DNA of 64,000 nt, taken from NCBI RefSeq assembly GCF_056746865.1, contig NZ_JBWKMP010000002.1; one strand, 5' to 3'. Positions 658 to 50,383 of the stretch are shown piece by piece (position 1 is the stretch's first letter; every line of letters starts with the position of its first letter). The translations under genes were made by a program, and so were the position numbers. The notes beneath the pieces were generated by a model, which saw only the letters and a list, made by a program, of their open reading frames with translations, was not told the DNA's origin and ran no database searches. The stretch comes from a plasmid.

Positions 658-3600
658 AATATTTCGGCAACTGCTTGCCCGTAACCGGATCCAGCGTAGT
701 TGAACCTACCTCACATATGGCCGGTCGAGGTAAATAGCTACAATCTACATTTTCCTCTTTTATAGCCTGAGCATTTTCTTGTCTGGCCTTTATCATATTT
801 TCTTCACCGCCCATTGCTTCCTTGGTACGTTCTGATGGAAGTTGATAGTTCTCATTCTGGAATGGTAAGTTTTCCACAATTGATTCTTCGGAGAATTTTG
901 AATATTGATCAGGAACTTCTCCTACCTGAACTGCATCATTAATCCACTCCGTCAGATCAATTTTATCGAAATCCAGTTGCTGTATTTGCTTTATTGATAG
1001 CCCCACGCAATTAGAGGCGACAGGGTCTATTCCTAATTGCGGATAAGCTTGTTGCATAATAACGCGTGACAACATGGAATTATAACAGCACATGTCTGTT
1101 GCTTTTTTAACGCATTTCTTTGTGAAACCAACATTCAGATATTTGACGCATCGTTCCGTATCTAATGTAAAACAGGATTTTTGATTCTTATGAATAGAAG
1201 CTTCCATCTCTTTCTGGTCGCATGCTACCAACATTTCTAAAAGCATTTTAGTGACCTGATAGGCTGTATAAATCCAACCGATCACGTTTAATGCAAGCAT
1301 AAAGTTTTGAACCGCAGCCGAGAAGACAACCTCTCCTCCGGTAGTAGCAACGTTCTTAAAGACAAAGTCTCGAACTGTATCTGGTAGCAATTCGTAGGCT
1401 TTCTTCATTGCCATCTGCTTAAGCTGACCTATACCGAAGCTGGACATTGTTTCCTGTGCCAACTGGCCAGCACCTCCTGCCCCTCCAGAAGTTGCGGAAG
1501 ACCCAACTGCCCTGCTTAGATTACCAGCGACGTTTTCATATACGCTCGTTAAGGAGCTCGTGACATTGTTCCACATTTGCCCTACTGTTTTACCAGCTGA
1601 TGCAGTCCACTCACCGACCGCATTGGACATAGAAGCCCATGTACCTGTATCACCGCCGGTCCATTTTATTAGCTGAGCATTAACTCTGGTCCAGTTAGTG
1701 TTTCTGATCATAGATCCGGCAAGCATGATACCTTCAAGTGCTCCTGCGGTTCCCTGCGGTGCTTCGCAGCAGTCCGTCTTTGCCAGGCCATTTACAAAGC
1801 CTACTGAACGACCACACCATTCAGGTTTTCCTTCAAAGACAGAACAGGAATTGGCATCGTTAGGGTCTTCGCATTTGGCTTCGCCCTGCATGTACTGAAC
1901 CATGTTTGAATAAGCCGCAACTTTTCCAAAATCGTTGTTCTCTTCCTTTGGCCCAGTTTCGCATGTTCCTCCAGAACATGGGATCATGCCAACACAGGCA
2001 TTTGTAGAAGATTCAACCTCACGAACTACATCCTTACCTCTGTCACAGGTGTATTTCTGTTCATACATGTAGCAGCTGTTAGTGCCCTCATCGAACCAAC
2101 CCTCTGCACATGTTTGTTTATCGAGTACACATGCTGCATCATTTTTATAAGAACTACATGCATCAGGCATACTCTTAATTTCTTCGTAGTTGTAACAGAG
2201 GTCCTTTCCATTAGCGTCTTTCATAATTTTCCCACTGGCGTCATAAGAGCAAATCTTGTCTTTAGCCAATGGATCACAAAAATAGCCTTCAAGGTTAGTC
2301 TTCCAGGTAAGAAAGCCTTTATCGCCTTCATACAGCGGCTTTGCCATAGAAAGCACGCTTTCCGGAAGCCGCTTCGTGCCAACATCCATATCTTTAAACC
2401 GATCGAAACGGCAGAATGTATTTGGTGTTTGTACAGCATCGTAACAACCAGCTGGTTCCTGGACGTGCTTATCTTCGAGCTTCATATTTTCAAACGTCAG
2501 CTCAACCTCAAAGTACCCTTCACCTCCCCCACCAACCCAGACTCTGGATGCCATTGTCACTTCACGATCAGGTTCTTCATAAACTGATTTTCTGACCTTT
2601 TCAGTTACATCGTATACTTTGTCGAGTTTCCACGATTTTTTTAACTCCCAAGATCCCTTTGGAGCCGGATAGTCACTTTCTCGATATGCACCATCTATGT
2701 GAGCAAAAATCTGCGTGCCATCAAGTGTTACCCGCATGTGGTCATCCCACTCCGCGTTAACAATCTTTGCTGAGGCCAATTTTGCATCCGGATGGAATTT
2801 TAATGTCAGTTCGTTATCAAATACCCCGTCACTCCAGTAGTTGTCATCACGGCGACCAAACCATATACGCACACAATTATCGCCGCACATCGACATGTCT
2901 CCGTTTCCGCCTGAAATGTATACAGGAACAGAGAAGTCACGAGTTATCGTGCAGCTGCTGAAGTTATCTTGCTTAGGCGAGTTACAGTAGAACTCTTTGT
3001 AATCAGGATAGTGTGTGGTTATTGTTTTTTTGGAGGTCTCAACATTACAGTTCTGAAGCCAGTTTCCAGTACCAGCAACAGCATTGGTTATCTCATTTCT
3101 CCCCGCAGTAAACATGGGATCGTTAGGCTTTACAGACGATGCCGGGTTGTCCTTGTTAGCATTTACGAGGGTGCGGTAGGCAACGCCATCATAACTTTGA
3201 GCATCAAATAACTGGCTTTTCCGATTCTTTATATCGTTAACAAAGCCATCCTCATCCCCATAACGATCTGCGGCGTTGAACTTTATATCGCTGTGCTTTT
3301 GCTCTGAGCTGAAAATCTCTCCCGTATTTGTTTTGGTTCCAGGAGTAGTATTGGGATTACTGCTTATACCAATGTTGCCATTAGCATCACGAGAGAGCAG
3401 CTTTGCCCCTTCCTTGGTGTAGTTTGAATTGATTGTCCCTCCAGACATACTCGGCAGTTGTACGGCGCTACCAATAGACTTTCCATCGGATGCGGCATTT
3501 TTCATGACACTTTCATTAGAGTTCCCTGCCCCATACTTCCCGAGATTAAGATTAGCGGATTCGGCTTTACCCACGTATTTCTCGGTGATCTTCCCACTGA

Positions 3601-3844
3601 CATTCTCGCCTGAATCCGCGTTCTTGTATTTCTCCACAATGTCCTGAGCACTGGTGGTTGCATTGCGATTTGCGTTAGGATTTGCAAGGTTAAAATTATT
3701 TTCGAGCTGGTCAAATATAGCGTCAGCAGCGTAAACACGTGGTGTCATTACCATGTTTATGAGTGTGACATAAAAAGCCCAACTCATAGTATTGGCAACC
3801 ATTGATGCAATAATCGCTGAGGTGATTGTTTTTCTAAGTTTCAC
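656..3844 (-). CDS. traN: TraN-like mating-pair stabilisation outer-membrane protein (large IncHI-type TrhN-like form)
   Basis: 1062-aa ORF with an N-terminal hydrophobic signal-like segment and a strongly cysteine-rich C-terminal half (many C-x(n)-C pairs), the hallmark of TraN. Lies immediately downstream of TraU/TraW/TraF-like genes in one minus-strand operon. Confidence 0.7.
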   Translation of the reverse strand: MKLRKTITSAIIASMVANTMSWAFYVTLINMVMTPRVYAADAIFDQLENNFNLANPNANRNATTSAQDIVEKYKNADSGENVSGKITEKYVGKAESANLNLGKYGAGNSNESVMKNAASDGKSIGSAVQLPSMSGGTINSNYTKEGAKLLSRDANGNIGISSNPNTTPGTKTNTGEIFSSEQKHSDIKFNAADRYGDEDGFVNDIKNRKSQLFDAQSYDGVAYRTLVNANKDNPASSVKPNDPMFTAGRNEITNAVAGTGNWLQNCNVETSKKTITTHYPDYKEFYCNSPKQDNFSSCTITRDFSVPVYISGGNGDMSMCGDNCVRIWFGRRDDNYWSDGVFDNELTLKFHPDAKLASAKIVNAEWDDHMRVTLDGTQIFAHIDGAYRESDYPAPKGSWELKKSWKLDKVYDVTEKVRKSVYEEPDREVTMASRVWVGGGGEGYFEVELTFENMKLEDKHVQEPAGCYDAVQTPNTFCRFDRFKDMDVGTKRLPESVLSMAKPLYEGDKGFLTWKTNLEGYFCDPLAKDKICSYDASGKIMKDANGKDLCYNYEEIKSMPDACSSYKNDAACVLDKQTCAEGWFDEGTNSCYMYEQKYTCDRGKDVVREVESSTNACVGMIPCSGGTCETGPKEENNDFGKVAAYSNMVQYMQGEAKCEDPNDANSCSVFEGKPEWCGRSVGFVNGLAKTDCCEAPQGTAGALEGIMLAGSMIRNTNWTRVNAQLIKWTGGDTGTWASMSNAVGEWTASAGKTVGQMWNNVTSSLTSVYENVAGNLSRAVGSSATSGGAGGAGQLAQETMSSFGIGQLKQMAMKKAYELLPDTVRDFVFKNVATTGGEVVFSAAVQNFMLALNVIGWIYTAYQVTKMLLEMLVACDQKEMEASIHKNQKSCFTLDTERCVKYLNVGFTKKCVKKATDMCCYNSMLSRVIMQQAYPQLGIDPVASNCVGLSIKQIQQLDFDKIDLTEWINDAVQVGEVPDQYSKFSEESIVENLPFQNENYQLPSERTKEAMGGEENMIKARQENAQAIKEENVDCSYLPRPAICEVGSTTLDPVTGKQLPKY

Positions 3845-3862
3845 TTATTTTCTCCTTAGAAA

Positions 3863-5023
3863 TCAAACGCCTGGAACGTAGCGAACACAACAGTCATTGT
3901 AACGCCACAACATATAGACATAATTATCGTTGCCTATTTTTTTGCGCCCACCTTTAAGGGTTGACCAGTCGTGTACCGAATCACCAAGACGATGACAGCA
4001 ATCCGGTCCCTTCGCCTCAGGAGTAGGGAAAAGCATTGAAAGCCGATACTGGGAACGTGGTGTAAAGTATTCCCACGTTTTCTCACACATTGCGTCTGCT
4101 CCCATCGTTCGCATCAGCATGCCTTGGCGATGTAGTTTTGTCAGAAGACGCTGGGTAATCAGTGAACTCGTCCTTACAGCGTCATCATTTGCGTAAATGT
4201 GGCCGGTTAATGGGTAAAGGTTGCCATCGCATCCGGCACAAAAGTATGCAGCGAGATTATCCTTTCCTGCTGTTACTGCTACACAGTCAGCAGCGCACAC
4301 CATTGAGGCAATTGGGTTTGCAAAAACTACTGCCTCGGGATTCAGGACGAGTGTAAGCAGATCACTTTCCCACATAGGGTCCACTTCGCTTATATAGGTC
4401 AGGCTGGCATCTATATAGGGTTCAGCAGTGCACTCGCCAATAATCAGTAATTTGAGCATTGTCATGATTGGGAACTCCCAAAGATGAACATCGTAAAATC
4501 CGGCTTCAGTTGCTGTCATTGGCTGATTAGTGTTGCTTTTACCAATATCAAACTGCGATTTTTGAAGCATCGTGCCTTCAAGAAAGGGGCTGCACCAGGG
4601 GCTCTTTACAACTTCTACAATCTTCACCGGCTGAAAGAAGCTCAATTGCCAACCTATTTCCGGTACGCCGTTCTGATCTGTGCAGTAGCAACCCGGACGT
4701 GAAGGTGCAGCGCCTTCTGGAGCAGCCCCTATGCCCATTATCCTCATGGGAAAAATGCAGCTCCAACAGATATTCTTAATCAAGCCCTGCCACACTCCAG
4801 CTGACTGACACATAGCCCCAGGGACTCCAGCATCTGCTGCCATAGCCATACCAGGTATAGAAAGCGAAAGCATAACTGCTACAATGAACTCTAAAAGTAA
4901 CTTTTTGAATTTTTTCACCATCATGCTCACTTGGATGTAATAAATGTTGCAACACTTTCGATATAGTCGACGGCTTTGGTAAAATAACTTCTCATCTGGT
5001 CCGGATAATTTAGCGTCAGCCAT
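3863..5023 (-). CDS. traU: TraU-like conjugal pilus assembly protein; true start probably the internal Met near 4924
   Basis: The ORF track gives 386 aa, but a typical signal peptide (MMVKKFKKLLLEFIVAVMLSLSIPGMAMA) begins 33 residues in. Multiple conserved Cys (ICWSCIFP...), periplasmic character, and position between the TraW-like and TraN-like genes. Confidence 0.65.
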   Translation of the reverse strand: MADAKLSGPDEKLFYQSRRLYRKCCNIYYIQVSMMVKKFKKLLLEFIVAVMLSLSIPGMAMAADAGVPGAMCQSAGVWQGLIKNICWSCIFPMRIMGIGAAPEGAAPSRPGCYCTDQNGVPEIGWQLSFFQPVKIVEVVKSPWCSPFLEGTMLQKSQFDIGKSNTNQPMTATEAGFYDVHLWEFPIMTMLKLLIIGECTAEPYIDASLTYISEVDPMWESDLLTLVLNPEAVVFANPIASMVCAADCVAVTAGKDNLAAYFCAGCDGNLYPLTGHIYANDDAVRTSSLITQRLLTKLHRQGMLMRTMGADAMCEKTWEYFTPRSQYRLSMLFPTPEAKGPDCCHRLGDSVHDWSTLKGGRKKIGNDNYVYMLWRYNDCCVRYVPGV

Positions 5024-5062: not shown

Positions 5063-6586
5063 TTATTTTTCCTCTGAAAGATTTGGGGCTCCGATTCCAC
5101 GGACTTCTGCCTCGCTAAACAGGGTGATCCGGAATTTATCTTGGTCAGTAGTTATAAGCGCAGGTGTATTTTTAATCTGAAAGCGTGAGATAATCTGTTC
5201 GTTTACTTTAAACACCTTACCGTTAAATTTTTCACGTAAATCATTTAGGTGATCCCATCCATTATCTTTTTGGATACGGGTAAACATTGGCATTACTTTT
5301 CCACTACCCAGACGTTGTCGATACTGCTGCTCAGCCCATACCAGCTGGCCCGGATTGAGTGGATCGAAAATTATCATCGTCAGGTTTTGAGGAAATCTCG
5401 AAAGTGGATTAATCAACTCACCGGCGGAAGCTATTACACGGCCCTGCTTATCTTTTACGTCCTGAGTGACCCTCACTGTAGGGTCAATTAAAAATTCTTT
5501 GTGTTCCTGGGCAGGAGGGAGATCGACCATCCATTGATTTTTCCAGGTGTCCGCAACGGCCCTTTTTTTTGCACCTTCCCAGTCATATTTTTGTGCGCGT
5601 TCTTCCAGTTCTTTAATGATGCTCTTTTCTTCAACGGGATAAATCGTACCAGCAACAGGAAAAATGTCCTGATCGGGTTTTTTAGCAAGTTCTCGCTGAA
5701 AAAACTCAACGTTGAAGGACCCTACCATTTTTGCAAAACGAGCTTGCTCCCGAGAAATAATTGTCGGTACTTGAGTTACTTGATACTGACTGAAGCTATC
5801 AGGATCAATTGTAATCAAAGGAGATTCAAATTTTCCTTTGACAATCATTTGGTTTATTGCTGCCTGTGTCTCTGGTAGCCGAGTAGTTCCTTTCTTTAGA
5901 CCATTGAAAACTACACGAGCTTTATGCTCTGAGGCCGTACGTAAAAGGTCTTCCAGTACATAATCCGGTAAGCTAAATGAAGCAAAGATCGTTATACCAT
6001 TTTCAGTTGATAGTGCTTCTTCACGTGTGCTATCCATTTTTCTTTCGAAGTCAGCAGCTGTGATGCCCGAGGAACCAAACAATTTTTCGATATTTTTAGA
6101 TTGTCCTCGCATGACTTCCGGCTTATTTTCCACAGCTTTCAGAGCCGCTTCATTAAGGCTGGCGTTTTCCTGAATTTCATCACGTCTTCTAATTATATCG
6201 TTGACAGCATCAGAGTTATTACTTTGGGCCCTTATAGCCTGGGTATGGTCTATAACTGCTTGAACACTATCCGCATTCATACCGGGCACGTAACCACGGT
6301 TTGTTTGCCTGCTCAGGTCCTGGTTTTTTTTGAGTGCTTCAGCTTGCGCAATGTACTTCTGCACATCTGGTGAATTTAGCGTAGCATCAAGGCTAAGAGC
6401 CCCATCTGGCTGCTGTGCACCTTTAGCCTGAGCGCCAAGCCCTTTTGCTTGCTGAGCGATTAGGTCAGCATCATGTTGATACTCAGTGCTTGCATTTGTA
6501 TTACTTAAAACTGCACATAACGCAAGTCCAGGAAGTATTGGTAAATATTTTTTATTTACATTAAAAGATCGCATATGTTTTCCCAA
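5063..6586 (-). CDS. traW: TraW/TrbC-like fusion protein (pilus assembly)
   Basis: 507-aa ORF with an N-terminal signal peptide; the size fits the TraW-TrbC fusion found in IncHI-type transfer regions. Sits between the TraF-peptidase-like and TraU-like genes. Assignment rests mainly on synteny and size. Confidence 0.5.
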   Translation of the reverse strand: MGKHMRSFNVNKKYLPILPGLALCAVLSNTNASTEYQHDADLIAQQAKGLGAQAKGAQQPDGALSLDATLNSPDVQKYIAQAEALKKNQDLSRQTNRGYVPGMNADSVQAVIDHTQAIRAQSNNSDAVNDIIRRRDEIQENASLNEAALKAVENKPEVMRGQSKNIEKLFGSSGITAADFERKMDSTREEALSTENGITIFASFSLPDYVLEDLLRTASEHKARVVFNGLKKGTTRLPETQAAINQMIVKGKFESPLITIDPDSFSQYQVTQVPTIISREQARFAKMVGSFNVEFFQRELAKKPDQDIFPVAGTIYPVEEKSIIKELEERAQKYDWEGAKKRAVADTWKNQWMVDLPPAQEHKEFLIDPTVRVTQDVKDKQGRVIASAGELINPLSRFPQNLTMIIFDPLNPGQLVWAEQQYRQRLGSGKVMPMFTRIQKDNGWDHLNDLREKFNGKVFKVNEQIISRFQIKNTPALITTDQDKFRITLFSEAEVRGIGAPNLSEEK

Positions 6587-19409: not shown

Positions 19410-20659
19410 GCGTTAACTCCTTGCTTAGCTGAAAAACTTTTTATTTCATTTATAAATTGTTGATATACCTGTAATACAGATTCTTCTGCGACATCAAGTT
19501 GCTTTGCGGAACAAAGTTCCTCTGATTTTTTGATATCAAGCACTGTACGCCCTTTGGAAGCAGCTGCCTTAAATGCTTCAGAATTTTTTATGTTAGCGGA
19601 CATCAAAAGGTCCTGAACAGTTCTGATTAATTTATCCAAAACTATTCTTTCATATGGACTTTTGTCATCAACATTGACAGCAAGAACTTTGAACCATTTT
19701 AAATTATCGCCCTTACTTGGTGATTGTTTAAACCTTTCACTTATTGTAAGCATGAAGTCTGTAGTAGAGGCGTAATCATATTCACGTGGTGACACTGCGA
19801 CAAGAATCCCATCGGCCGCTTCGTCAGCAGCCCAGATCAAAGGTGAATCTTCAGGTGGAGTGTCTATAATAATCAAATCATAGTTCTGCTTCAGTACCGG
19901 TAAGATAACTTCCTTGAAACGTAGTAACAAAGACGTTCGTTCTTCTCTAGAACATTGCCAGTATTTATCTTTAAAACGAGCATCTGTCGGAAATGCCGTT
20001 ATCACGTCCAAGTTTGGCAGATGCGTTGAAAAAGGCATATTAGTGATGATTTCTTCTTCAGAGAATCCTGAATCTAAATATTTTTTATACTCAGAATTTT
20101 CTTCATAAATTCCAAGGATTGCATCAATTGCTGTAAGGAAGACATCATCTTCTGAGACACTTTGAATCATGCTGCTTCCAATCGAACCTTGTGGGTCCCA
20201 TTCGATCATTAATACACGTGCATTCAGTTGTAGATCTAAAGCAGCTGCTACTGCTAAAGCTACAGATGTAGTGCTTTTCCCTGTACCGCCTTTATGATTC
20301 TGAGTAACAATAGCTCTGCTAAAGTAATGATCGCGGTACTTGGGATAACCCAGGGCATCCATTATTTTTTGAACATCCCAGCGGGTGTAAAGATGATTTT
20401 TGTTTTGATAAATAGGTGCACCAACAACTTCTTTTTCTTCTAAGTCCGAAAGTATTTTATTGAACGTTACTCGTGACTTCCCAAAAAAATCAGAGAGATT
20501 TTTTTTATTTAAACAGTGGTTGTAGATCAGTCTATCAACACCATCAACACTATCATCAGAAACAGATACTCTTGATGAAGCCATCAGAGATTCCTTAAGA
20601 GAAATCTGCTCGCTTTTCATGCGCTGACCAACGAGGGCGATCTTTTCAAGTAAATTCAT
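19406..20659 (-). CDS. parA: Walker-type partition ATPase ParA/SopA family with N-terminal extension
   Basis: 417-aa ORF with the deviant Walker A motif KGGTGKSTTS, preceded by a roughly 100-aa N-terminal region as in type Ia ParA proteins; overlaps the downstream parB-like start. Confidence 0.8.
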   Translation of the reverse strand: MNLLEKIALVGQRMKSEQISLKESLMASSRVSVSDDSVDGVDRLIYNHCLNKKNLSDFFGKSRVTFNKILSDLEEKEVVGAPIYQNKNHLYTRWDVQKIMDALGYPKYRDHYFSRAIVTQNHKGGTGKSTTSVALAVAAALDLQLNARVLMIEWDPQGSIGSSMIQSVSEDDVFLTAIDAILGIYEENSEYKKYLDSGFSEEEIITNMPFSTHLPNLDVITAFPTDARFKDKYWQCSREERTSLLLRFKEVILPVLKQNYDLIIIDTPPEDSPLIWAADEAADGILVAVSPREYDYASTTDFMLTISERFKQSPSKGDNLKWFKVLAVNVDDKSPYERIVLDKLIRTVQDLLMSANIKNSEAFKAAASKGRTVLDIKKSEELCSAKQLDVAEESVLQVYQQFINEIKSFSAKQGVNA

Positions 20660-21089
20660 GGTTATGACCTTTTTGCACTGAAAACCGACTTTTACGCATA
20701 TATGTAAACTTTACGCATAATGCGTCCATTTCATTGTTATACGTACAATTCTATCCTTTGTTTCAATCCTAAGCTAATGTTTGTTTACTTTTTTATGATT
20801 TTTTGTGAGCTTAACTTGCAGATGAGAGCTCAGACTCTCTAGTCCTTAATGCTCATTCTTTTTAAACCACGATTCTTGTCGACTTCTCTACGCTTTGACG
20901 TTATGAGCTCCATTAATGAATCTTAGCCTACCCTATTTCTTGCTTAAGAATTTAATTCTTCTCTCACCGGTGTGCTGATTTAAGTTTTCCTAACTGTGAA
21001 TCGTTGTCGTCAGTCCAGTCTAAAGATATGAGGTGTCATTTTCTTTGAGTAGGCCCACTACGAATTATGGGAGCAAAGTTAGCGACCTA

Positions 21090-24055
21090 GCCCAGAACTG
21101 AAACCCAACTTCAGGAGGCAACCCCAGTGTGGCGATTGGAGTTAATCTGCCAGCGGCTGACAGTGTCCTGGCTCCTTTCTCCGTGGCCCACCACGCCCTG
21201 ATTAAAATCCCCTGCCCGGTATTGTATGGAGCGAAAAAAGCCCGTGCATTTGTGTCGGCAGACCGGCATGAAGGAATATGACGTTAATCTGTATCAGCAG
21301 GCACTTTTCGCATGATGGGAGCAAGTGATAGCAACCCCGCCCAGAACGGAAGGCCAGCATCAGGACAAAACCCAAGTTTGGCGATTAAGGGGGTTAAATT
21401 TGCAAGCGGATGACAGTGCCCCAGCTGCTGCTCAGTCACACCACGCCCTGAGTAAATCTCTCGCCAGGTCTTGTTATGACCGAAAATAGCCCAAGCACTG
21501 GTGTCGGCAGACCGGCATACAGGAATATGACGTTAATCTGTATCAGCAGATACATTTCGCATTATGGGAGCAAGAGATAGCAACCCAGCCCAGAACTGAA
21601 GGCCAGCATGAGGACAGAACACCAGTTTGGCGATTAAGGGAGTTAAATATGCAAGCTGCTGATAGTGCCCCAGCTCCTGCTCAGTAACACCACGCCCTGA
21701 TAAAATCTCCTGCCCGGTAATGTAATGACCGAAAAAAGGCCGTGCACTGGTGTCGGCAGACCGGCACGCAGGAAAATGACGTTAATCTGTATTAACAGAC
21801 ACATTTCGCATTAGGGGAGCAAGTGATAGCCACCCAGCCCAGAACTGAAGGCCAGCATCAGGACAGTACCCCAGTTTGGCGATTAAGGGGGTTAAATCCG
21901 CCAGTGGCTGTAAGTGCCCGAGCGGTGTATAAGAAATATTTCCCGAAGGACAATCTTTCGCTCGTACGATGAATAAAGTGTTCAACCCGGGAGCGGGGAT
22001 CACTTACCTGCTTAGCCTAAATCTTACGTCATTCTTAAACGGAGTTTAAGCTTAATGGTCCTTAGAAAGTTAAAAGGACTACCCATAATGACGTCTTGAG
22101 ATGGCGAATAAAGGGTTTTAATCTGCCAGCGGCTCAACAGTGCCCCAGCTTCTGCTCAGTCACACCACGCCTGATTAAATCTCCCGCCAGGTCTTATTAT
22201 GACCGAAAATAGTCCCCGTGCACTAGAGTCGTAAGACCGGCATACAGGAATGAAGCTTAAATCTTTATCAGGTTGCAAGGTTCGCATCATGGGAGCAAGG
22301 GCCTTGAACTGTAGGTTAACATCAGAAAATCCCAGATTGGCGATTAAGGGGGTTAAATCTGACAGCGACTGAAAGTGCCTTCAGATGCTGCTCAGGTATA
22401 TTACAACCTGAAAAAATCAAGCGTCTGTTCATGCGAATATCGAAAAAAGCTATGCACCAGTTTCGGCAGACCGGCATGGAGTAATGAGACGTTAATCTGT
22501 ATCAGCTGGCGCATTTCGTATCATGGGAGCAAGTGTTAGCAACCCTGCCCAGGACGGAAGGACACTATCAGGACTGATCCCAGTTTGGAGATTAAGGGGG
22601 TTAAATCTGCCAGTGGCTGACAGAGCCTTCTGAGTCAGACATACTATGAACGATAAAATCACCCGTCCGTCCTTGTGATTATCGGAAAAAGCCATGCCCA
22701 GTCGGCAGATCGGTATGCAGTAATGTGACTTTAATCTGTATCAGCAGGCGCAATGGGAGCAAGTGTTAGCAACCGAGCCCAGGACGGAAGGACACTATCA
22801 GGACTGAACCCCAGTGTGGCGATTAAGGGGGTTAAATCTGCAAGCGGATAACAGTGCCCCAGCTGCTGCTCAGTCACACCACGCCCTGATTAAATCTCTC
22901 GCCAGGTCTTGTTAGGACCGAAAATAGCCCGAGCACTGGTGTCGGCAGACCGGCATACAGGAATACGACGTTAATTTGTATCAGCAGGTACATTTCGCAT
23001 TATGGGAGCAAGTGATAGCAACCCAGCTCAGAACTGAAGGCCTGCATGAGGACAGAACACCAGTTTGGCGATTAAGGGGGTTAAATCTGACAGCGGCTGA
23101 CAGTGCCTTCAGATGCTGCTCAGGCATACTACTCTCCCTGATATAATCTCCCATATGTTCTTGAGATTCGCCCATGCACCGGTGTCGGCAGACCGGTATG
23201 CAGTAATGTGATTTTAATCTGTATCAGCAGGCACATTTCGTATCATGGGAGTAAGTGTTAGCAAACCGAACCCCGCCCAGCACGGAAGGTCAATATCAGA
23301 CCAGAATCCCAGTTTGGCGATTAAGGGGGTTAAATCTGCAAGCTGCTGACAGTGCCCCAGCTTCTGCTCAGTCACACCACGCCCTGATAAAATCTCCTGC
23401 CCGGTAATGTGATGACCGAAAAAAGCCCGTGCACTGGTGTTGGCAGACCGGCACGCAGGAATATGACGTTAATCTGTATCAGCAGTTACATTTCGCATTA
23501 TGGGAGGAAGTGATAGCCACCCAGCCCAGAACTGAAGGCCAGCATCAGGACAGTACCCCAGTTTGGCGATTAAGGGGGTTAAATCCGGCAGCGGCAGTAA
23601 GTGCCCGTGCTGTGTTAAAGGAATATTTCCCTAAGGACAATCTTCCGATCGGCCTTTTGTATAAAGTGGTCACCCCGGGAGCGGGGATCACTTTACCTGC
23701 TTAGCCTAAATCTTACGTCAATCACTATCCGGAATTTTAGCTTAATGGTCCTGAGCAAGTTAAAAGGGGTACCCCTAATGACGTCCCCAGATGGCGATAA
23801 AGGAGTTAATTCCGCCTTCGGCTTACAGTGCCGCAGCTGCTGCTAAGGAACACCACGCCCTGATTAAATCTCCCGCCTGGCCTTGTGATGACCAAAAATT
23901 GTCCGTGCACTGGCGTCGTAAGACCGGCATACAGGAATGAGGCGTTAATCTTTATTAGGTGGAAGGATTCGCATCATGGGAGCAAGGGCCCTAGAACTGT
24001 AGGCTAACATTAGAAAATCACAGATTGGCGATAAAGGGGGTTAAATAAGTTAAAA
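21090..24055. repeat. Tandem array of ~240-bp direct repeats (about 12 units) with a higher-order ~1.7-kb periodicity, upstream of parA
   Basis: Recurring blocks such as CCAGTTTGGCGATTAAGGGGGTTAAATCTGC and GTGTCGGCAGACCGGCATACAGGAAT...GACGTTAATCTGTATCAGCAG reappear at about 240-250 bp spacing. Two divergent units containing TTAGCCTAAATCTTACGTCA...AGCTTAATGGTCC recur about 1.69 kb apart. Confidence 0.85.
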
Positions 24056-24417
24056 GTCTTCGGTGAGCAAATTGGATAAATTTTCATAAACCAAAGCGTT
24101 AATATTAAACTTTTAGAAGAATGATTAAAGGATATTAAGTTTTGTATGCAATATGACACCAGTGATCTGTTTTCACTAATAATGCCGCGCTCCTTTGATT
24201 ACCTTTGGTAAACAAAAATGTAATTTACGTGAATTTCATCTTATAAAGTCAGTATTGATGTTATAAATTTTGTTTACTTAATGCGTACACAACCTAAATG
24301 CGATTTGTAATTATGTCACTGTTTTTAAGCCATATTAATTATAAAACCAAAATTTGCAGCACAGTGATGAACTCATTAAGTCATAACCTCATTTGTTTAC
24401 TTAAGGCATACAATAAA

Positions 24418-24452
24418 AAACCAGATTCTTATGAGACATCTGGTTTAATTGT
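24418..24452 (-). terminator. Rho-independent terminator downstream of traC
   Basis: Hairpin CCAGAT-(loop)-ATCTGG; on the minus strand it is followed by a T-run, just 3' of the traC stop. Confidence 0.6.
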
Positions 24453-24473
24453 TTTTGCTTGAAGATATTTACT

Positions 24474-27146
24474 CTACGCGGCCAAACCCGCTGCTACTTC
24501 TTGAGCATAGAGAATTTCTATTGCCTCGCCATAGCTACAATTCTCGCGGCTTTGAATTTCCCATAATTTACTCCTGTCAGCACTATCCGTAGTAAAACAA
24601 AGCTCCATTTTCCGGTCTACGTATAACCGACAGATCTCGTAAGTTTCGAACCTGACTAACATCTCTGAAAACACCTTTTTGACTGTACGAATATTTTTCA
24701 TTCGTTCATATTCTGCATCTGAAGTAGAAAAATATTTATTAGCCTTCATTGCTTCAATGCTTTCTTTTTCTTGTTTCATGATTATCTTCCAAGGCGAGTT
24801 AGCAGTCAGGGCCCGGCCAACAGAAGAAGTAAAATAATCTTCAAACGACTGTGTGATACAGATGCCAGCGCAGTTTGTTTTCCTGAACCTACGCCATGCC
24901 GCTTCGAGGAAGGAAGAGAAGAATTGGTTTGATTGATTTCCGGCACCTGATGAATTATCAGGACGAATGTACTCCCAAGCTTCATCTAGGATGAACAAGC
25001 GACGACGCCCATCTTTTTTGATGAACATTGCATGCTGAGCAGCCTGAATGATAGACATTAAAACAACTGTCTGAAGGTGGGGGGTGCCTTTTAGCTCCTC
25101 CAGTTCCAAAACAATAAATCTGCTGTCTATTGGAGGCAACGTATCGGTAAACCGGTGCCCATAAATTCCACCTTCGCACCATGCTCCGAGTTGCTCCCCA
25201 ATATCCTTTATACGTTTGTCTTCATGCTTCTTGCAACGCAGAGCAAAGCCGGTTATTGAACCGGTCCGACCTGATTTTCTGGATTCCTGGTACTCTTCTG
25301 CAATAAGCTGAAGCATCACTGATTGTTGATAATCATCGATAAGGCCTTTCTCTGAAGCCATAATTTTTAGCTGATTCAGAACCATTATGGTCTGAGCAAC
25401 TTTGTCTTTTTCTGCATCGTTTGAAGTTGATTCACCGGTAAATTCAGGTGCTTCGTTAAATACATCGTCGTTAACAGTGATGTCAGTTAGGAAGGCAAAG
25501 GGATTTAGGGTGAAGTCAGGGGTTTTACCGAAATCAATAAATTGACTGTTTGTATATTGTTCCGCAATCCCCTGGTAAGAACGCCCCACGTCCACTACAA
25601 AAACTTGAGCACCATCAGGATCATCATCTGGGTATTCGTTTTCTAAAAAATGCTTAAATGTTGAGCGATAATGAACGAGGTTATTAGATCGCGGTCCAGC
25701 TCCAAGATAGTTATTGATTAGATATGCTGTCCAGAATGACTTGCCTGCACCTGACGTTGCACCAATAACCATGTTATAGCTTGCAGAAGTCTTGAAAATA
25801 TCAAGTCCCATGAGTTGACCTTCACGAGAAACTAAACTCAGTACTGGTCTATCTGTATTACCTTTCCAGGGCCCAAAGATCGGCGTCATATGAGCCGCTC
25901 CGGTGTTGCTCACTACTTCGGATCGGTCAAGGTCGAAAATTGTCTTTGGGTCATTGCACATTGGCAGACATGACATAAATGACGGGAAAACGATAAAGGA
26001 ATCATCTGCTACTTTGACCCGGCTTTCGAGGTAAAAGGATTTGAGATCGTTAGCTGCTGTCTGCACAGAATTGGCATTACTACCCATAACAGTGAAAGTA
26101 AGATACCCTCTTAAAAGCTTTGCGCCATCCTCAAGCTCGCGAGTTACGGCCATGTAGTCATTATCCATATCCCGCAGGCGAGGGCAGAATGTGACAACTG
26201 AAGGTATACTTGCCTGTTTATTAGTGATTGCTTTGTAGCGGACGTTTTCTTTTGACAACTTGAGCGGATCGGCAAACTGAACAGTCTGAGTGATCATAAA
26301 TGGGCTGAAAATTGTCTTACGTCCATGCATCCAGTTAACTACTAACTCATACATACAACCGAAATTGACGTATTCAGGAAACTTTACAACGGAAAGTTGT
26401 TTGAAGTAACGATGCTCAGATTCGTCGTCACTTTGTGTGACTGATGAGAAATGATTTTCTGTGACTGTATACTTACGGCCGGGAACGTTAACTTGTTCAT
26501 TAAGCCTTTTCATAGTGTTAACGTCTATAAAACCTTCAGCCCACCGAGAGTTCTTTCCGGGGTTTACGACCTTATCTATACAATAGAGCCAGTTTTCTGC
26601 ATCGACCTTAAACGGATGCAGTCCAATCGTAATTAACTTACTTACAAGTTCAGAGTAAAGTGAATCGATACGCGAATGTTCCAGCTCGGTAGGAAGGGCA
26701 GACTGTAAAGGAATCGATAGCGAGATCCATACCTGAAAATCCCTCAACATAAGGTTATCATGATCAGGTTTTAAAGGCTTATGCATACTTCTGTCGTAGT
26801 AGTCCAACTGATAACCATTAAGCAGATCTGCTTTAAGCTTATCGTTCCCAGTCATACGCCCACCTCGCACAGCTGACCAAGCACTAAGCTGTAAAGTCAA
26901 GTCTGGCAATGCAGTCAGAGATATTTGACAGACAGTATCTGTAGGAAAATCCATTTTGAACATTTCAGCAAGAACATCTTGCTGATTATCAAAAACTCCA
27001 GGTGATGGATTACAGATAAACATAAACCCTAATCTGTTGCCATCAATCAAAAAATAGTGAGTCCCTGCTAATTGATCGTAAACAGGGATAAACCCACCTA
27101 ATTGATGGCGATTTAAACCGCTATTGTAATTATTGATAGCTTCCAT
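24474..27146 (-). CDS. traC: Conjugative type IV secretion ATPase, TraC/VirB4 family
   Basis: 890-aa ORF with Walker A (GATSGAGKS) and a downstream Walker B-like hydrophobic stretch ending in DEAW; size and position (after the TraV-like gene) are typical. Confidence 0.85.
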   Translation of the reverse strand: MEAINNYNSGLNRHQLGGFIPVYDQLAGTHYFLIDGNRLGFMFICNPSPGVFDNQQDVLAEMFKMDFPTDTVCQISLTALPDLTLQLSAWSAVRGGRMTGNDKLKADLLNGYQLDYYDRSMHKPLKPDHDNLMLRDFQVWISLSIPLQSALPTELEHSRIDSLYSELVSKLITIGLHPFKVDAENWLYCIDKVVNPGKNSRWAEGFIDVNTMKRLNEQVNVPGRKYTVTENHFSSVTQSDDESEHRYFKQLSVVKFPEYVNFGCMYELVVNWMHGRKTIFSPFMITQTVQFADPLKLSKENVRYKAITNKQASIPSVVTFCPRLRDMDNDYMAVTRELEDGAKLLRGYLTFTVMGSNANSVQTAANDLKSFYLESRVKVADDSFIVFPSFMSCLPMCNDPKTIFDLDRSEVVSNTGAAHMTPIFGPWKGNTDRPVLSLVSREGQLMGLDIFKTSASYNMVIGATSGAGKSFWTAYLINNYLGAGPRSNNLVHYRSTFKHFLENEYPDDDPDGAQVFVVDVGRSYQGIAEQYTNSQFIDFGKTPDFTLNPFAFLTDITVNDDVFNEAPEFTGESTSNDAEKDKVAQTIMVLNQLKIMASEKGLIDDYQQSVMLQLIAEEYQESRKSGRTGSITGFALRCKKHEDKRIKDIGEQLGAWCEGGIYGHRFTDTLPPIDSRFIVLELEELKGTPHLQTVVLMSIIQAAQHAMFIKKDGRRRLFILDEAWEYIRPDNSSGAGNQSNQFFSSFLEAAWRRFRKTNCAGICITQSFEDYFTSSVGRALTANSPWKIIMKQEKESIEAMKANKYFSTSDAEYERMKNIRTVKKVFSEMLVRFETYEICRLYVDRKMELCFTTDSADRSKLWEIQSRENCSYGEAIEILYAQEVAAGLAA

Positions 27147-27154
27147 ATTTGACC

Positions 27155-28105
27155 TTACAGTTGTCTAACAATGCCGTTCGAAGAGACAGCTTTAGTTGCT
27201 TTTTGTTGCTGCTGCATATTTTCCCGGGCCGCATCCTGTACTTCTAAAGGAACTATGCGAGCTGGGTTTGAGGTCGAATTCTTGCCAGCAATCCATGTTT
27301 GCGGTTTTACGTTGACATAAACGTAGCCGGGAAGATTAAGCGCATCGTTATCATCGGTATAAGGTGCAAAAGTAATTCTCATTACTTTCCCCTGTTGCAG
27401 AACAGCAAGTGGTTCAGGAGCCACTACAGCTTGTTTATAACCTTGCGAACGGTATTGCTGGATCTGCCCAGTGTTGAGAGTAGGGTTAACGGGCTGGCCA
27501 TTGTAAAGAGAGTACATATCCTTGCCAGGGCTGATATCAGAATTAGGTGCAACGTAGCGTGGTGCATTTCCAGCAGAAACCGGATAGCTTGTTTGTTTAA
27601 CGACTTCCGCAGCCGGATGAACGAAAGGGTTACCAGCTGAAGAGGCAGTGCTATAACTGCTAGTCATCCTTACGTTTGAATTAACCGGTACACCAGAAAT
27701 AGGCCGTGGTCCAATGGATGAAGTAGGGGCACCCATTTTTAAAGTTTTATCGTACATGACAGGTAACTGACCAACTGGCTTAATTTCGGTTTTTGAATAA
27801 GCCACAGGCTGATTTTTAAGGGTTGTAGACTGTGGATATTTGACTTCCCCTGGAGGGCTAATTTCAGTTGGATAACGGCTGTCATTGACAGCCGATTTCT
27901 CCTTTCCCGATTCCGACTCTTCCCCCGCAAGTGCAGACAGATCATCTCGATTATTAGTTAACTCCATAACTTCGCGAGGACCTTTACAGATAACGCCCTT
28001 TTCAATGCCTGGACATTCGGATTCGGAACTCCCGATGGAGCACCCCGTAAGATATGAGGATGTACCTACAACCAGAGCACTGAGTACCAATCTTTTGATG
28101 TTCAT
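27155..28105 (-). CDS. traV: TraV-like outer-membrane lipoprotein (extended form)
   Basis: 316-aa ORF with a lipobox (YLTGCS) and a second Cys shortly after (ESECPG) as in TraV; Pro/Ser/Thr/Gln-rich linker; located between the TraB-like and TraC genes. Confidence 0.6.
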   Translation of the reverse strand: MNIKRLVLSALVVGTSSYLTGCSIGSSESECPGIEKGVICKGPREVMELTNNRDDLSALAGEESESGKEKSAVNDSRYPTEISPPGEVKYPQSTTLKNQPVAYSKTEIKPVGQLPVMYDKTLKMGAPTSSIGPRPISGVPVNSNVRMTSSYSTASSAGNPFVHPAAEVVKQTSYPVSAGNAPRYVAPNSDISPGKDMYSLYNGQPVNPTLNTGQIQQYRSQGYKQAVVAPEPLAVLQQGKVMRITFAPYTDDNDALNLPGYVYVNVKPQTWIAGKNSTSNPARIVPLEVQDAARENMQQQQKATKAVSSNGIVRQL

Positions 28106-35225: not shown

Positions 35226-36101
35226 TCAACCTTGTTTGGCGAGGGCCAGCTTAGGGCTTCTTTTGAAGATCTGAAATTGTATGTCGCGACCTTTCTTAAC
35301 TTCTTGATAATCGAGATATCCGATAGATTCAAGTTCCCGCATTGCTTTACGAATTATCTGGTTTTGCGTACGAATAGGGGTTGTAAGAAGCAACCTTTCC
35401 CTCAACCGTTTCATATTAACGAACAACGTACCAGCTGGCATTGCTTCAAAATAAATATAGAGAGATTGCGCAGCTTCTTTTTTAGCCAAAATGTATAGAA
35501 CCTGAAGGCTTAACAATGTCTTATGGTCGTAACGATACAGTTCCCACATAGAAGGATCCCCAACCAACTCAACAGTATCGCTTTTTGGATCAATCATAGC
35601 CTTCTGCACCAGATGCGTTACTGTGAACCGACCACTCCGAGAGTCTGAGAAGGCAAGCACTACCGATGCAAGGTTCATTAATGACTCTTTAAAGCGCGCA
35701 CGAGTTCGTTTGTTGATGTTTGTTGAACTGATACCACACATCTTCGCAAACTCGTTAAAAGTCAGGGTAATCTTCTCGGAAGTAAAACCATATTTACTGA
35801 AAGCCATGATGATCCCGAGCCAGCACTTAAAGTCGGTAGACATAGATAGTTTGACACCAGTTATCTTGATGTCGTCATAACCCTCCGATCTTGCAATTTC
35901 CATACACGAAAGCTCATCAGAGGCATCAACTTCAAAGTTTCGGTCGCGGTTTTCTTTTGTGCCGACAGGGGTAAATACACTCAATCTCAACAGGGCCACG
36001 GGCTGAACCGACTTGGACGAGTTAGGCGTCAGTTGATAAGTCTTACCTGATTCATTACTGGTTACGTCAAAAGGATGGATTAACTCGTTGTTTTTAATCA
36101 T
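35226..36101 (-). CDS. Iteron-type replication initiator (Rep_3/RepE-like family)
   Basis: 291-aa ORF flanked on both sides by iterons; the size and iteron context fit a theta-replication initiator, and it has a frameshifted paralog at 49297..50383. Confidence 0.7.
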   Translation of the reverse strand: MIKNNELIHPFDVTSNESGKTYQLTPNSSKSVQPVALLRLSVFTPVGTKENRDRNFEVDASDELSCMEIARSEGYDDIKITGVKLSMSTDFKCWLGIIMAFSKYGFTSEKITLTFNEFAKMCGISSTNINKRTRARFKESLMNLASVVLAFSDSRSGRFTVTHLVQKAMIDPKSDTVELVGDPSMWELYRYDHKTLLSLQVLYILAKKEAAQSLYIYFEAMPAGTLFVNMKRLRERLLLTTPIRTQNQIIRKAMRELESIGYLDYQEVKKGRDIQFQIFKRSPKLALAKQG

Positions 36102-48479: not shown

Positions 48480-49100
48480 CAAAGGTGCCAGAGAGTACAA
48501 AGAAGATCCCGGTACGCTGTAGGCCGCATGGTTACTGGGCTGGAGCATTGTCACTGACAACAGTAGCGACATAAGTGACAACGGGAGTGACTTAAAAGAC
48601 AATGGTAGAGACTATTTCGACGTTGGTAATGATTTTAAGTGACAATGGTAGTGAGGTTAGACTTAAACTTCCACTGTGAGGTAAGGTGACTCGCATTATT
48701 TAAATAAATCATTACTTTCAATTACTTGCGACACGAGTCTGCATGTATGCTTCTATTTCTCAAAAATTTATCCACCGAAAATGCCTGTGGCTGTGATTTA
48801 GCTTTGACGACAGTTTTTATCAGGGAGGCAAGTTGAGACCTGTATAAGAACTAAGCATTTATTTATCCCCATTTTCCACAAGGTAGTTCCAATAATTAGT
48901 ACCTTAGTGTTCCTGATAGATCAAAAGAGATCCCCGCTGCCTCCAGGCCAGACGGCACAAGGCCTGAGACGTGATCAGTGACAACAGTAGTGATTATTTT
49001 GACATTAGTAGTGATTATTATAACGTTGGTAATGAGTTTTTTGACATCAGTAGTGATCAGAGCGACAATAGTAGTGACTTTTCATTAGATCTTTTTAACT
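48480..49100. repeat. Degenerate iteron-like repeats (GACAAYRGTAGTGA core) upstream of the second rep gene
   Basis: Motifs such as CTGACAACAGTAGCGACATAAGTGACAACGGGAGTGAC, AAGTGACAATGGTAGTGAGG, GTGACAACAGTAGTGATTATTTTGACATTAGTAGTGATTATTATAACGTTGGTAATGAG and GCGACAATAGTAGTGACT share a core with the array downstream of the gene. Confidence 0.7.
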
Positions 49101-49296: not shown

Positions 49297-50383
49297 ATGA
49301 CTAAAGAGAAAGATACTGAGCAGCAGGACCTGGTCACCAGGGCTTTCTCTGTTAGAGAGAAAGAATCAGGTAAAGACATCATTTTGCGTCCTAACAGCAA
49401 CCGTACGGTGCAGTCTATTGCTTTGATGCGGCTCGGGCTGTTCGTCCCATCACCAAAGAGTGTGGGGCGTCAAAATCGGGAATATAAAACGGTTGGCTTT
49501 GACGCAACGAAAGAGTTACAGACGCTCTCTTTAATGGAGAGCGAGGGGTTCACCAATATTTCAATTGTCGGTGAGCGTCTTAATATGTCAGTAGATTTTA
49601 AGACGTGGATGGGCATCATTCGAACCTATGCCAATCATCCGATTAACAATGACACGATAAGCTTAAAATTCACTGAATTCCTCAAGCTATGTACGCCTGA
49701 AAATTATCGCTCATCTACAGCGTCCAGAAAACGTATAGACGCCTCCTTACGCAGGTTAGCATCCGTTACCTTGTCGTTCACCAGTAATAACTCGTCCAGT
49801 CTATACAACGCATCTGGTACAGTCTGCCCTGTTAGACCCGGAATCAGATCAGGTTGTCCTTCAGGTTGATCCTAAGATTTTCGAGCTCTATCAATACGAT
49901 CATAAGGTTTTGATGCAGCTGAAGGCAATTAAGGAGTTGGCCAAGAAGGAAAGCGCCCAGGCTCTCTATACGTTCATAGAGTCATTACCGCCAAATCCTA
50001 TACCGATATCCCTTACTCGGCTGAAAAATCGTCTGAACCTCAAAACACGAGCAAATAGTCAGAATGCTACCGTGAGAAAGGCTCTTGAAGAGTTGGCATC
50101 GATAGGATACCTCAAGTACACCGAAATTAAGAAAGACGGAAAAGTATACTTCCAGATTCATAAGCGGGATCCCGATCTGAATTTGAACAATACTCAGCCT
50201 CCTTTAGAAGTGGTTGAAGATGAAGAAGAGAACTCAGGGTCTTCTGTTTTAGAAGGTGAGTTATGCCCACCAGCTGACCCGATTGACGGCGATGATGTTC
50301 TTACCGTCCATGATTTAACCGCTGAAGAACTGCGCTATATTCGTAGTCTTCGAAGCCAGAAAAAGAACAGCAACGCCAGCTAA
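49297..50383 (+). pseudogene. Second Rep_3-type replication initiator, split by an apparent frameshift
   Basis: ORFs 49297..49869 and 49910..50383 are colinear with the N- and C-terminal halves of the 35226..36101 Rep (VQSIALMRLGLFVPSP versus VQPVALLRLSVFTPVG; C-terminal [26 protein letters not shown] versus ELESIGYLDYQEVKKGRDIQFQIFKR). The frame changes near 49800. Confidence 0.6.

Follow-up and report, generated by a model that had tools for sequence, protein, structure and literature searches.

A long-period tandem array of P1 parS-like boxes upstream of parA as the probable Par1 centromere of IncHI2 plasmids

Introduction

The partition sites of P1 (parS) and of the F plasmid (sopC) are the two prototypes with which the element presented here was compared, a tandem array of about 3 kb upstream of parA in a 64,000-nucleotide stretch of plasmid DNA (NCBI RefSeq assembly GCF_056746865.1, contig NZ_JBWKMP010000002.1; hereafter the window). 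The sopC site consists of 12 tandem 43-bp repeats with one SopB site each. The annotated parS of P1 is composed, in this order, of B1 (TCGCCA), A1 (ATTTCAC), an IHF site, A2 (ATTTCAA), A3 (GTGAAAT), B2 (TCGCCA), and A4. The A2-A3-B2 part, termed parS small, is by itself enough for ParB to bind and constitutes the minimal P1 site; discrimination between species is a property of the B boxes (PMC10999674).

The array of the window is most probably the cis-acting partition site (centromere, an iterated parS) of Par1, the type Ia ParA/ParB system of IncHI2 plasmids. An earlier note on this DNA had named a centromere for the adjacent parA and parB as its first option, and the comparative evidence points to that option, with a short box conserved beside parAB across lineages.

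Besides mcr-9, the R478-like IncHI2 plasmids of 200–370 kb carry other colistin, carbapenem, and heavy-metal resistance genes. These plasmids are major carriers of mcr-9 (PMC7229202). The array block was unannotated or given spurious small open reading frames (ORFs) in the database records examined. A full-text literature search gave no account of these repeats; the primary partition and sequence papers on R27 and R478 lay outside its scope, and an earlier description is possible.

Organization of the array and its box

Tandem Repeats Finder (TRF) reported a single array at positions 21064–23606, with a period of 249 bp, 10.4 copies, 68% matches, and a score of 1786, and ungapped repeat families continued the array to position 24046. 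The whole array was composed of about 12 tandem units of 225–255 bp, with a modal length of 249 bp, and a terminal box. Each unit contained one 21-bp box and a spacer of about 229 bp, which was specific to IncHI2. Anchoring on conserved motifs gave 11 units of 230–255 bp, two of them as stretches of 476 bp, where the normal spacer had given way to a divergent segment of about 205 bp. The earlier note had counted about 12 direct repeats of about 240 bp, and the array was confirmed by TRF, the repeat families, and the unit alignments.

The box, TGGCGATTAAGGGGGTTAAAT, reads ATTTAAC-CCCC-TTAATCGCCA in the parAB direction, and the conserved block GCGATTAAGGGGGTTAAATCTGC contains the probable ParB site. 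Thirteen copies of the box, GGCGATTAAGGGGGTTAAAT, phased on the most conserved block, were located at spacings of 225–249 bp. They were arranged head-to-tail, one per unit and all in a single orientation, and the first was about 400 bp from parA. Copies with at most one mismatch numbered 10 in the array, compared with 0.01 expected by chance, and no copy was found elsewhere in the 64-kb window, including downstream of parB. The box was also the best-conserved block within the units, with a column identity of 0.96 and a pairwise identity of 92%, compared with 76% for the rest of the unit.

Three 20-nt blocks of the spacer reached column identities of 0.90–0.93, and the other parts of the spacer 0.5–0.8. 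All three conserved blocks quoted in the earlier note were present once per unit and absent elsewhere in the 64 kb. The two quoted in addition to the box occurred in 10 and 8 copies (0.15 and 0.04 expected) and were confined to the array. Outside the array, neither the promoters, the surroundings of rep and parM, nor any other part of the window contained a spacer block.

The two divergent segments recurred 1688–1690 bp apart (repeat families D10–D12), as the earlier note had recognized at about 1.69 kb. Its further proposal of a duplicated super-unit of about 1.7 kb was borne out by the ungapped self-identity of region 21582–22358, which was 65% at an offset of 1687 and 23–40% at the other offsets tried. 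The divergent spacer was also found in another IncHI2 lineage by unit alignment. The simplest reading of the array is amplification of a 249-bp segment with one site, the copies being homogenized by unequal recombination.

The G+C content of the array was about 0.50, compared with 0.31–0.44 in the flanks, and the array was the most G+C-rich stretch of the region. An H-NS-nucleating element was among the options of the earlier note, whereas H-NS prefers A+T-rich DNA. A steady excess of A over T ran along the array on the plus strand.

Conservation of the box in R27

The parA–trhC intergenic regions of IncHI2 and of the IncHI1 plasmid R27 are 3.8 and 3.1 kb long, respectively, and the ParB proteins are 71% identical. 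When the whole regions were compared by sensitive blastn, 198 of the 199 matches overlapped the box, and the remaining match was the parA promoter/operator. The box and the parA operator were the only alignable sequences between the two spacers. R27 contained 23 boxes with at most two mismatches, all in one orientation and 52–54 bp apart, over 2.2 kb. Its gap contained 52-bp repeats (about 22 copies) and 54-bp repeats (about 6 copies), whose core was the 21-bp box itself. Among 284 records with the R27-type box, mostly of IncHI1 type, 4 to 27 matching places were found per record.

The Par1 locus of R27 is orthologous to that of IncHI2, with the same gene order and an identical or near-identical box and parA operator. 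In contrast to IncHI2, it has units of 52–54 bp and at least 23 boxes, which are divided into two blocks by about 0.8 kb of other DNA. The R27 unit shares nothing with the IncHI2 unit except the box.

The 0.8-kb DNA that splits the R27 boxes (R27 locus 26745–27540) contained boxes of degenerate sequence as well as, on the minus strand, a short stretch resembling an ORF (~27100–27330), and it has no counterpart in IncHI2. An origin of the 249-bp unit from about five decayed 52-bp R27 units was considered and rejected; the local alignment of the spacer with the R27 unit scored 12, compared with a shuffle mean of 14.7. The alignment of the spacer with its own box region scored 15 compared with 13.4, and no internal periodicity was detected in the spacer.

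Distant ParB relatives and co-variation with the box

More distant relatives were collected by tblastn with the intact IncHI2 ParB and by one representative-genome scan, a shallow survey that added 8 loci, and their repeats were analysed with mixed tools rather than one uniform script. The ParB relatives were 45–74% identical, and in every case parAB was accompanied by an adjacent box of the same design, which pointed the same way with respect to the operon. An IncHI1A plasmid of Klebsiella grimontii had 11.5 copies of a 54-bp unit with the box CATTTAACCCCCTTAATCGCCAG. Plasmid pKP059 of K. pneumoniae, whose ParB is 49% identical, had 23 copies of a 66-bp unit and short arrays on both sides, with the box AAAACAACCCCGTTGTTCGCAGTC. 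Plasmid pK92-qnrS of K. michiganensis had 41 copies of a 67-bp unit upstream of parA and 14 downstream of parB, with the box AAAACAACCCCCTTGTTCGCAGTC; its upstream array was 2.8 kb long and had a higher-order period of 334 bp. The same box as in pK92-qnrS was found in a K. grimontii contig with 67-bp arrays on both sides. The smallest period was observed in a Serratia symbiotica plasmid, with 3.6 copies of a 38-bp unit (box TAAACACCCCCTGTTTGCCC / GGTAAACACCCCCTGTTTGCCCAAC). A Providencia plasmid (MPF_T) had single boxes, AAAACAACCCCCTTGTTCGCCAA, one 118 bp upstream of parA and the other downstream of parB, and Xenorhabdus eapokensis had two boxes, AAAACAACCCCCTTGTTCGCCAAAC, 81 bp apart and directly downstream of parB, the classical parS position.

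Since the relatives keep the box design in differing arrangements, comparison of these loci indicates that the box travels with parAB, rather than the array or the spacer. Arrays of very large size and with a hierarchy of periods are common among the compared loci of the IncHI-related branch. The earlier note had regarded the array as atypically large and hierarchical; within this ParB family, however, neither feature is atypical, as R27 (boxes over 2.2 kb) and pK92-qnrS (2.8 kb with a higher-order period) illustrate, and the 249-bp unit, with one site per 249 bp, is the unusual part. The arrays of the large MOBH/MPF_F Klebsiella plasmids pKP059 and pK92-qnrS resemble that of IncHI2 in the box design, the very large size (up to 2.8 + 1.0 kb), and the higher-order periods of 324–334 bp. 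They differ in their short period, in lying on both sides of parAB, and in the box itself, whose arms and hexamer are changed to those of another specificity variant (AACAACCCC[CG]TTGTTCGCAG). In both plasmids, parAB and the arrays were located among several genes for Ig-like-domain proteins of about 800 aa, not in a Tra2-like operon.

The arms of the box remained inverted repeats while their sequence changed (TTTAA/TTAA, AACAA/TTGTT, and AAACA/TGTTT), which is the pattern expected of a dyad-symmetric site read by a dimer. The recognition helix of ParB, in the segment aligned with the helix-turn-helix of P1, was SHVSV[AS]KR with TTAA arms, S[TIV]ES[VI]RKR with ACAA/TTGT arms, and GVTSINKR with AAACA/TGTTT arms, and it is SQAKVTRA in P1. 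In the C-terminal domain, GRKxRxEFNR accompanied the hexamer TCGCCA and GQKVSFEFKR accompanied TCGCAG. These correspondences suggest that the arms and the hexamer co-vary with the recognition helix and the C-terminal domain of ParB, respectively.

A contig labelled as a Phycisphaeraceae metagenome-assembled genome encoded a ParB 35% identical to that of IncHI2, and three 21-bp repeats, CGGTAAATCTGTCACGAAATAG, were located at 5343–5406, which places them upstream of the ParB match by about 1.6 kb. Contamination or transfer of a plasmid may explain the taxonomic label.

The par genes and the parA operator

The ParA of the window aligned with P1 ParA from residue 62 onwards at 25% identity (E 3e-17), and the alignment also covered residues N-terminal to the Walker box. 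It matched the NCBIfam ParA and RepA partition models below their cut-offs and is annotated as a ParA family protein in the representative IncHI2 plasmid pTB-nb4. Residues 150–330 of ParB aligned to the crystal structures of P1 ParB(142–333) with DNA (1ZX4/2NTZ; E 4e-16), and residues 207–330 matched Pfam PF08775 (E 9e-11). In addition, tblastn with ParB against P1 parB gave 28% identity over 84% of the query (E 4e-22).

The earlier note had described parB as fragmented. The gene is indeed split in the window by two 1-bp insertions or deletions (indels) and is otherwise 100% identical to the intact 334-aa parB of pTB-nb4. Four further 1-bp indels relative to pTB-nb4 were found in backbone DNA, at 13117, 17118, 18220, and 31788. 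The trhC gene contained in-frame deletions of 3 and 6 bp at 24643 and 25127, and the flanks were otherwise identical save a handful of base substitutions. Because similar 1-bp indels are present in neighbouring backbone genes, the parB indels suggest a sequencing or assembly error or a very recent mutation, rather than selective decay of the partition system, which is the less likely explanation of the fragmentation.

Upstream of parA, the palindrome ACGCATAATGCGT was located at 20713–20725 and was conserved in R27 (R27 locus 25381–25426), and the direct repeats TTTACGCAT at 20691–20699 and 20710–20718 were likewise conserved in IncHI1. The palindrome and the direct repeats are probably the operator for ParA autorepression, as judged from the annotated ParA operator of P1. 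Each array unit contained TCGCATTATGGGA, a partial look-alike of the operator palindrome. The coordinates of the par genes, the operator region, and the array features are listed in Table 1.

Table 1. Features of the Par1 locus in the 64-kb window.
Feature	Position	Strand	Basis
parB, P1-type ParB, interrupted by two 1-bp indels near 18649 and 19022	18405..19409	-	alignment to pTB-nb4
parA, 417-aa type Ia partition ATPase with N-terminal extension	19406..20659	-	ORF and homology
parA promoter/operator region	20694..20802	-	74% over 110 bp with R27 25376-25485
Tandem array	21064..24046		TRF, repeat families, unit alignments
Box 1, degenerate GGCGATTGGAGTTAATCTG; intact GGCGATTAAGGGGGTTAAATCTG in the common IncHI2 variant	21131..21149	-	comparison with pTB-nb4
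Box 2, GGCGATTAAGGGGGTTAAAT on the + strand; ATTTAACCCCCTTAATCGCC(A) on the - strand (parAB direction)	21380..21399	-	0 mismatches
Box 3	21629..21648	-	1 mismatch
Box 4	21878..21897	-	0 mismatches
Divergent ('odd') spacer copy 1, replaces the usual spacer	21898..22102		recurs 1688-1690 bp downstream, 82-97% identity
Box 5, degenerate GGCGAATAAAGGGTTTTAAT	22103..22122	-	unit alignment
Box 6	22339..22358	-	0 mismatches
Box 7, GGAGATTAAGGGGGTTAAAT	22587..22606	-	1 mismatch
Box 8	22818..22837	-	0 mismatches
Box 9	23067..23086	-	0 mismatches
Box 10	23316..23335	-	0 mismatches
Box 11	23565..23584	-	0 mismatches
Divergent ('odd') spacer copy 2	23585..23792		repeat families D10-D12, unit alignment
Box 12, degenerate GGCGATAAAGGAGTTAATT	23793..23811	-	unit alignment
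Box 13, terminal, GGCGATAAAGGGGGTTAAAT; array end	24027..24046	-	1 mismatch

A second partition system was located 4 kb from parB and was composed of parM (14260–15297) and a downstream ORF of 212 aa (13610–14248), both on the minus strand. The region upstream of parM contained small inverted repeats and nothing resembling the array motifs. On the other side of the array, an imperfect inverted repeat with 27-nt arms, 70% complementary, was found at 24400–24464, just downstream of the trhC stop and within the A+T-rich spacer of 0.4 kb between trhC and the array. This inverted repeat may act as a terminator for the trh operon, which lies on the minus strand.

Distribution among IncHI2 plasmids

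Region 20700–24400 was searched by megablast against PLSDB. It matched 1128 plasmid records, all of IncHI2 type, 632 of which covered at least 80% of the query. The matching records were from Escherichia (379), Salmonella (343), Enterobacter (270), and others, and 972 of the plasmids were predicted to be conjugative. No array sequence was found outside these 1128 records by blastn in the 'distant' mode. In the representative pTB-nb4, typed as IncHI2A / MOBH / MPF_F, the array is an unannotated gap between the genes for the ParA family protein and a "TraC family protein" (trhC) of the Tra2 transfer region, and the ParM system is also located near the array.

In other IncHI2 lineages, the array was about 82% identical, yet the flanking TraC protein was of the same accession. 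These lineages had 11–13 boxes at the same spacing of about 249 bp, and this period was retained in all IncHI2 lineages examined. Because the array recurs in the 1128 records and in the other lineages with their 11–13 boxes, it is a stable, lineage-wide feature and not an assembly artefact, a concern that the earlier note had raised. In record NZ_OU015329.1, an IS3-family element was located inside the array. Insertion sequences have the array as a target or boundary.

Partition model and alternative explanations

In the proposed mechanism, each unit would contribute one 21-bp candidate ParB site, in which two inverted arms that resemble A boxes are followed and overlapped by the hexamer TCGCCA of the B box. 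On the model of its P1 homologue, a ParB dimer would recognize the inverted arms through its helix-turn-helix domains and the hexamer through its C-terminal dimer domain. The approximately 10–13 sites over 3 kb would nucleate one large ParB–DNA partition complex, with ParB spreading or sliding along the DNA as its relatives do. The task of ParA would be to move and position this complex on the nucleoid and, at the palindromic operator that separates the array from parA, to repress parAB. We infer the binding and spreading of ParB, the role of ParA, and the function of the operator from sequence comparison.

Several observations weigh against the assignment of the array as the Par1 centromere. 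The position of the sites and their iteration depart from P1, as described in the last section. The right arm of the IncHI2 box is one base short of a perfect inverted repeat (TTAAT compared with GTTAAAT). The IHF consensus, WATCARNNNNTTR, did not recur per unit; one match was found in the array and 12 in the window, where 8.3 were expected, although an IHF site of divergent sequence may be present. The three spacer blocks are nearly as conserved as the box and are unexplained if the spacer is passenger DNA. The co-variation of box and ParB rests on four or five independent lineages. Furthermore, the IncHI2 plasmid p17Sal018 has two boxes only, beside an IS91-family transposase gene (locus 2629–2897 and 3109–4506). 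Because p17Sal018 keeps only these two boxes, the large array is not indispensable, at least when the second system, ParMR, is present.

The spacer blocks form the basis of the best-surviving alternative, which adds to the Par1 centromere rather than replacing it and is unlikely in our judgement. The boxes would be ParB sites, and the IncHI2-specific spacer would be functional as well. In one variant, the blocks GCACTGGTGTCGGCAGACCG, GACGTTAATCTGTATCAGCA, and TTTCGCATTATGGGAGCAAG would serve as sites for a second factor or for ParA, or as auxiliary half-sites for ParB; in the other, the 249-bp spacing would set the geometry or extent of ParB loading and of the silencing of the flanking parA and tra promoters. 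The elevated conservation of the blocks, their confinement to the array, and the constancy of the period among IncHI2 lineages are consistent with such a function. In addition, the spacer sequence CGTTAATCTG resembles the outer arm of the box and its flank, GGTTAAATCTG, and TCGCATTATGGGA resembles the parA operator palindrome. However, both resemblances are short and could be due to chance (about 0.1 for a shared 9-mer, as an estimate), and units that share recent ancestry and recombine can show uneven conservation without selection, through concerted evolution. IncHI1 and more distant relatives have 17–46 bp of unrelated spacer, and the divergent units contain none of the three blocks, yet they are retained in two lineages.

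A bolder evolutionary proposal, put forward tentatively, is that a short-period, sopC-like array of minimal P1-type parS was rebuilt in IncHI2 as a long-period composite centromere. The spacer would then be a second functional module, and the spacing of about 250 bp would tune the number of ParB clamps loaded and the reach of the partition or silencing domain over the neighbouring par and transfer promoters. Such a module may make additional contacts with ParB or ParA, or it may bind another factor, of the plasmid or of the host.

It is highly improbable that the array is a tandem structured non-coding RNA or a source of small RNAs, a possibility that the earlier note had mentioned. The non-coding nature of the array, its G+C content above that of the flanks, and its A>T skew would fit an RNA, and short hairpin-like patterns were visible by eye in the unit alignment. 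However, no Rfam family matched at the gathering score or at E<=1. RNAalifold on 16 units from two lineages (262 columns) gave consensus energies of -11.0 (plus strand) and -7.7 (minus strand) kcal/mol with covariation terms of -0.6 and -0.3, a weak consensus fold, and the folding z-scores of single units were 0.10 and 0.75. Promoter-like sites (4, with 6.4 expected) and terminator-like sites (4, with 4.3 expected) were not in excess, and the relatives conserve only the 21-bp box.

A role as iterons is equally improbable, in which a Rep protein instead of ParB would bind the repeats and the array would serve replication, copy control (handcuffing), or incompatibility. Plasmid arrays of tandem protein-binding repeats are frequently iterons, several replicons are present in IncHI plasmids, and a RepB-family initiator gene (35226–36101) that is 88% identical to that of R27 lies in the window. 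However, no box was found near this gene or anywhere outside the array in the 64 kb, and the iteron-like repeats of the window (21-bp repeats at 48556–49057 and 81-bp repeats at 50872–51612) are unrelated in sequence. Moreover, the box accompanies parAB and not rep genes in the non-IncHI plasmids of Providencia, Xenorhabdus, and Serratia, and its sequence tracks residues of ParB.

The 81-bp repeats just mentioned form a second tandem array of 9.2 units with higher-order periods of 162 and 243 bp, and each unit holds the inverted motif TCACTACCGTTGTCA / TGACAACGGTAGTGA. The related 21-bp repeats (48556–48613 and 48979–49057) flank two ORFs, 49297–49869 and 49910–50383, for which no NCBIfam match was found. 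The repeats between 48.5 and 51.6 kb look like an iteron replicon with a copy-control array, and their sequence has no relation to that of the parS-like box.

A decayed protein-coding repeat (for example, of a repeat protein with about 83 aa per repeat) or an assembly artefact is the least probable explanation: although 249 is 3 x 83, the majority-rule consensus unit has one stop-free frame, and tandem repeats are prone to collapse or expansion during assembly, every real unit has 1–5 stops in the consensus-open frame, unit lengths of 230/231, 236, and 248 bp break the frame, the variability is not concentrated at third codon positions, one open frame in six is expected about 1 in 10 times by chance (an estimate), and the same array is present in the 1128 records and in the further lineages.

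All six frames were closed across the array, with 43–65 stops per approximately 994 codons each. The earlier note was right to treat the ORFs predicted inside the array as artefacts, with stops in every frame of every real unit and no codon-position signal. A 53-aa hypothetical protein (e.g. WP_001371949.1) is annotated inside the array in three records (924–1085, 1971–2132, and 2156–2317 of the respective loci), and it is probably an annotation artefact because the array has no coding signal.

Implications

The assignment of the array as the Par1 centromere would give annotators a defined feature and a 21-bp motif. One ParB family that uses 1, 2, 4, 12, 23, 41+14, or 13 sites at spacings of 38–249 bp forms a natural series, which would be useful for understanding how the number and spacing of sites shape ParB partition complexes on very large plasmids. 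From their identical boxes, IncHI1 and IncHI2 plasmids are predicted to be mutually incompatible at the level of partition, and the assignment also predicts a compact target for strategies of plasmid curing. Furthermore, the A-box/B-box recognition code of P1par would be extended to new specificities, with candidate specificity residues.

Comparison with P1 parS and sopC

The IncHI2 box and the A2-A3-B2 part of P1 parS were compared in the parAB direction, as ATTTAAC-CCCC-TTAAT/CGCCA and ATTTCAA-G-GTGAAAT/CGCCA, respectively. Both are composed of an A box, an inverted A box, and an overlapping B hexamer, TCGCCA, which is identical in the two sites, and the order and orientation relative to parAB are the same. 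A palindromic operator precedes parA in both systems, and both partition proteins are homologous, ParB through its DNA-binding and dimer domains. The arms differ, with ATTTAAC in IncHI2 and ATTTCAC/A in P1, and the spacer between the arms is C4-5 in IncHI2 and 1 bp in P1. Unlike IncHI2, P1 has one composite site of about 80 bp that includes an IHF site and lies downstream of parB, whereas IncHI2 has about 13 minimal tandem sites upstream of parA.

The array resembles sopC in being a head-to-tail array by the par operon, with one site (in IncHI2 a probable one) for a ParB-type protein per unit. However, the sopC unit is 43 bp and its array of about 0.5 kb lies downstream of sopB, whereas the IncHI2 unit is 249 bp and the array 3 kb. 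The sopC site consists of a 16-bp inverted repeat, and a B-box element is absent. The short unit of sopC-like arrays is not found in IncHI2, where the 21-bp box lies in 249 bp, and it is found in the relatives, with units of 38, 52–54, and 66–67 bp. Thus, the IncHI2 array belongs to neither prototype, as it lacks the single IHF-containing site and the downstream position of P1par and the short unit of sopC. It is most probably a long-period form of the known P1-type ParB-binding centromere and not a new kind of system.

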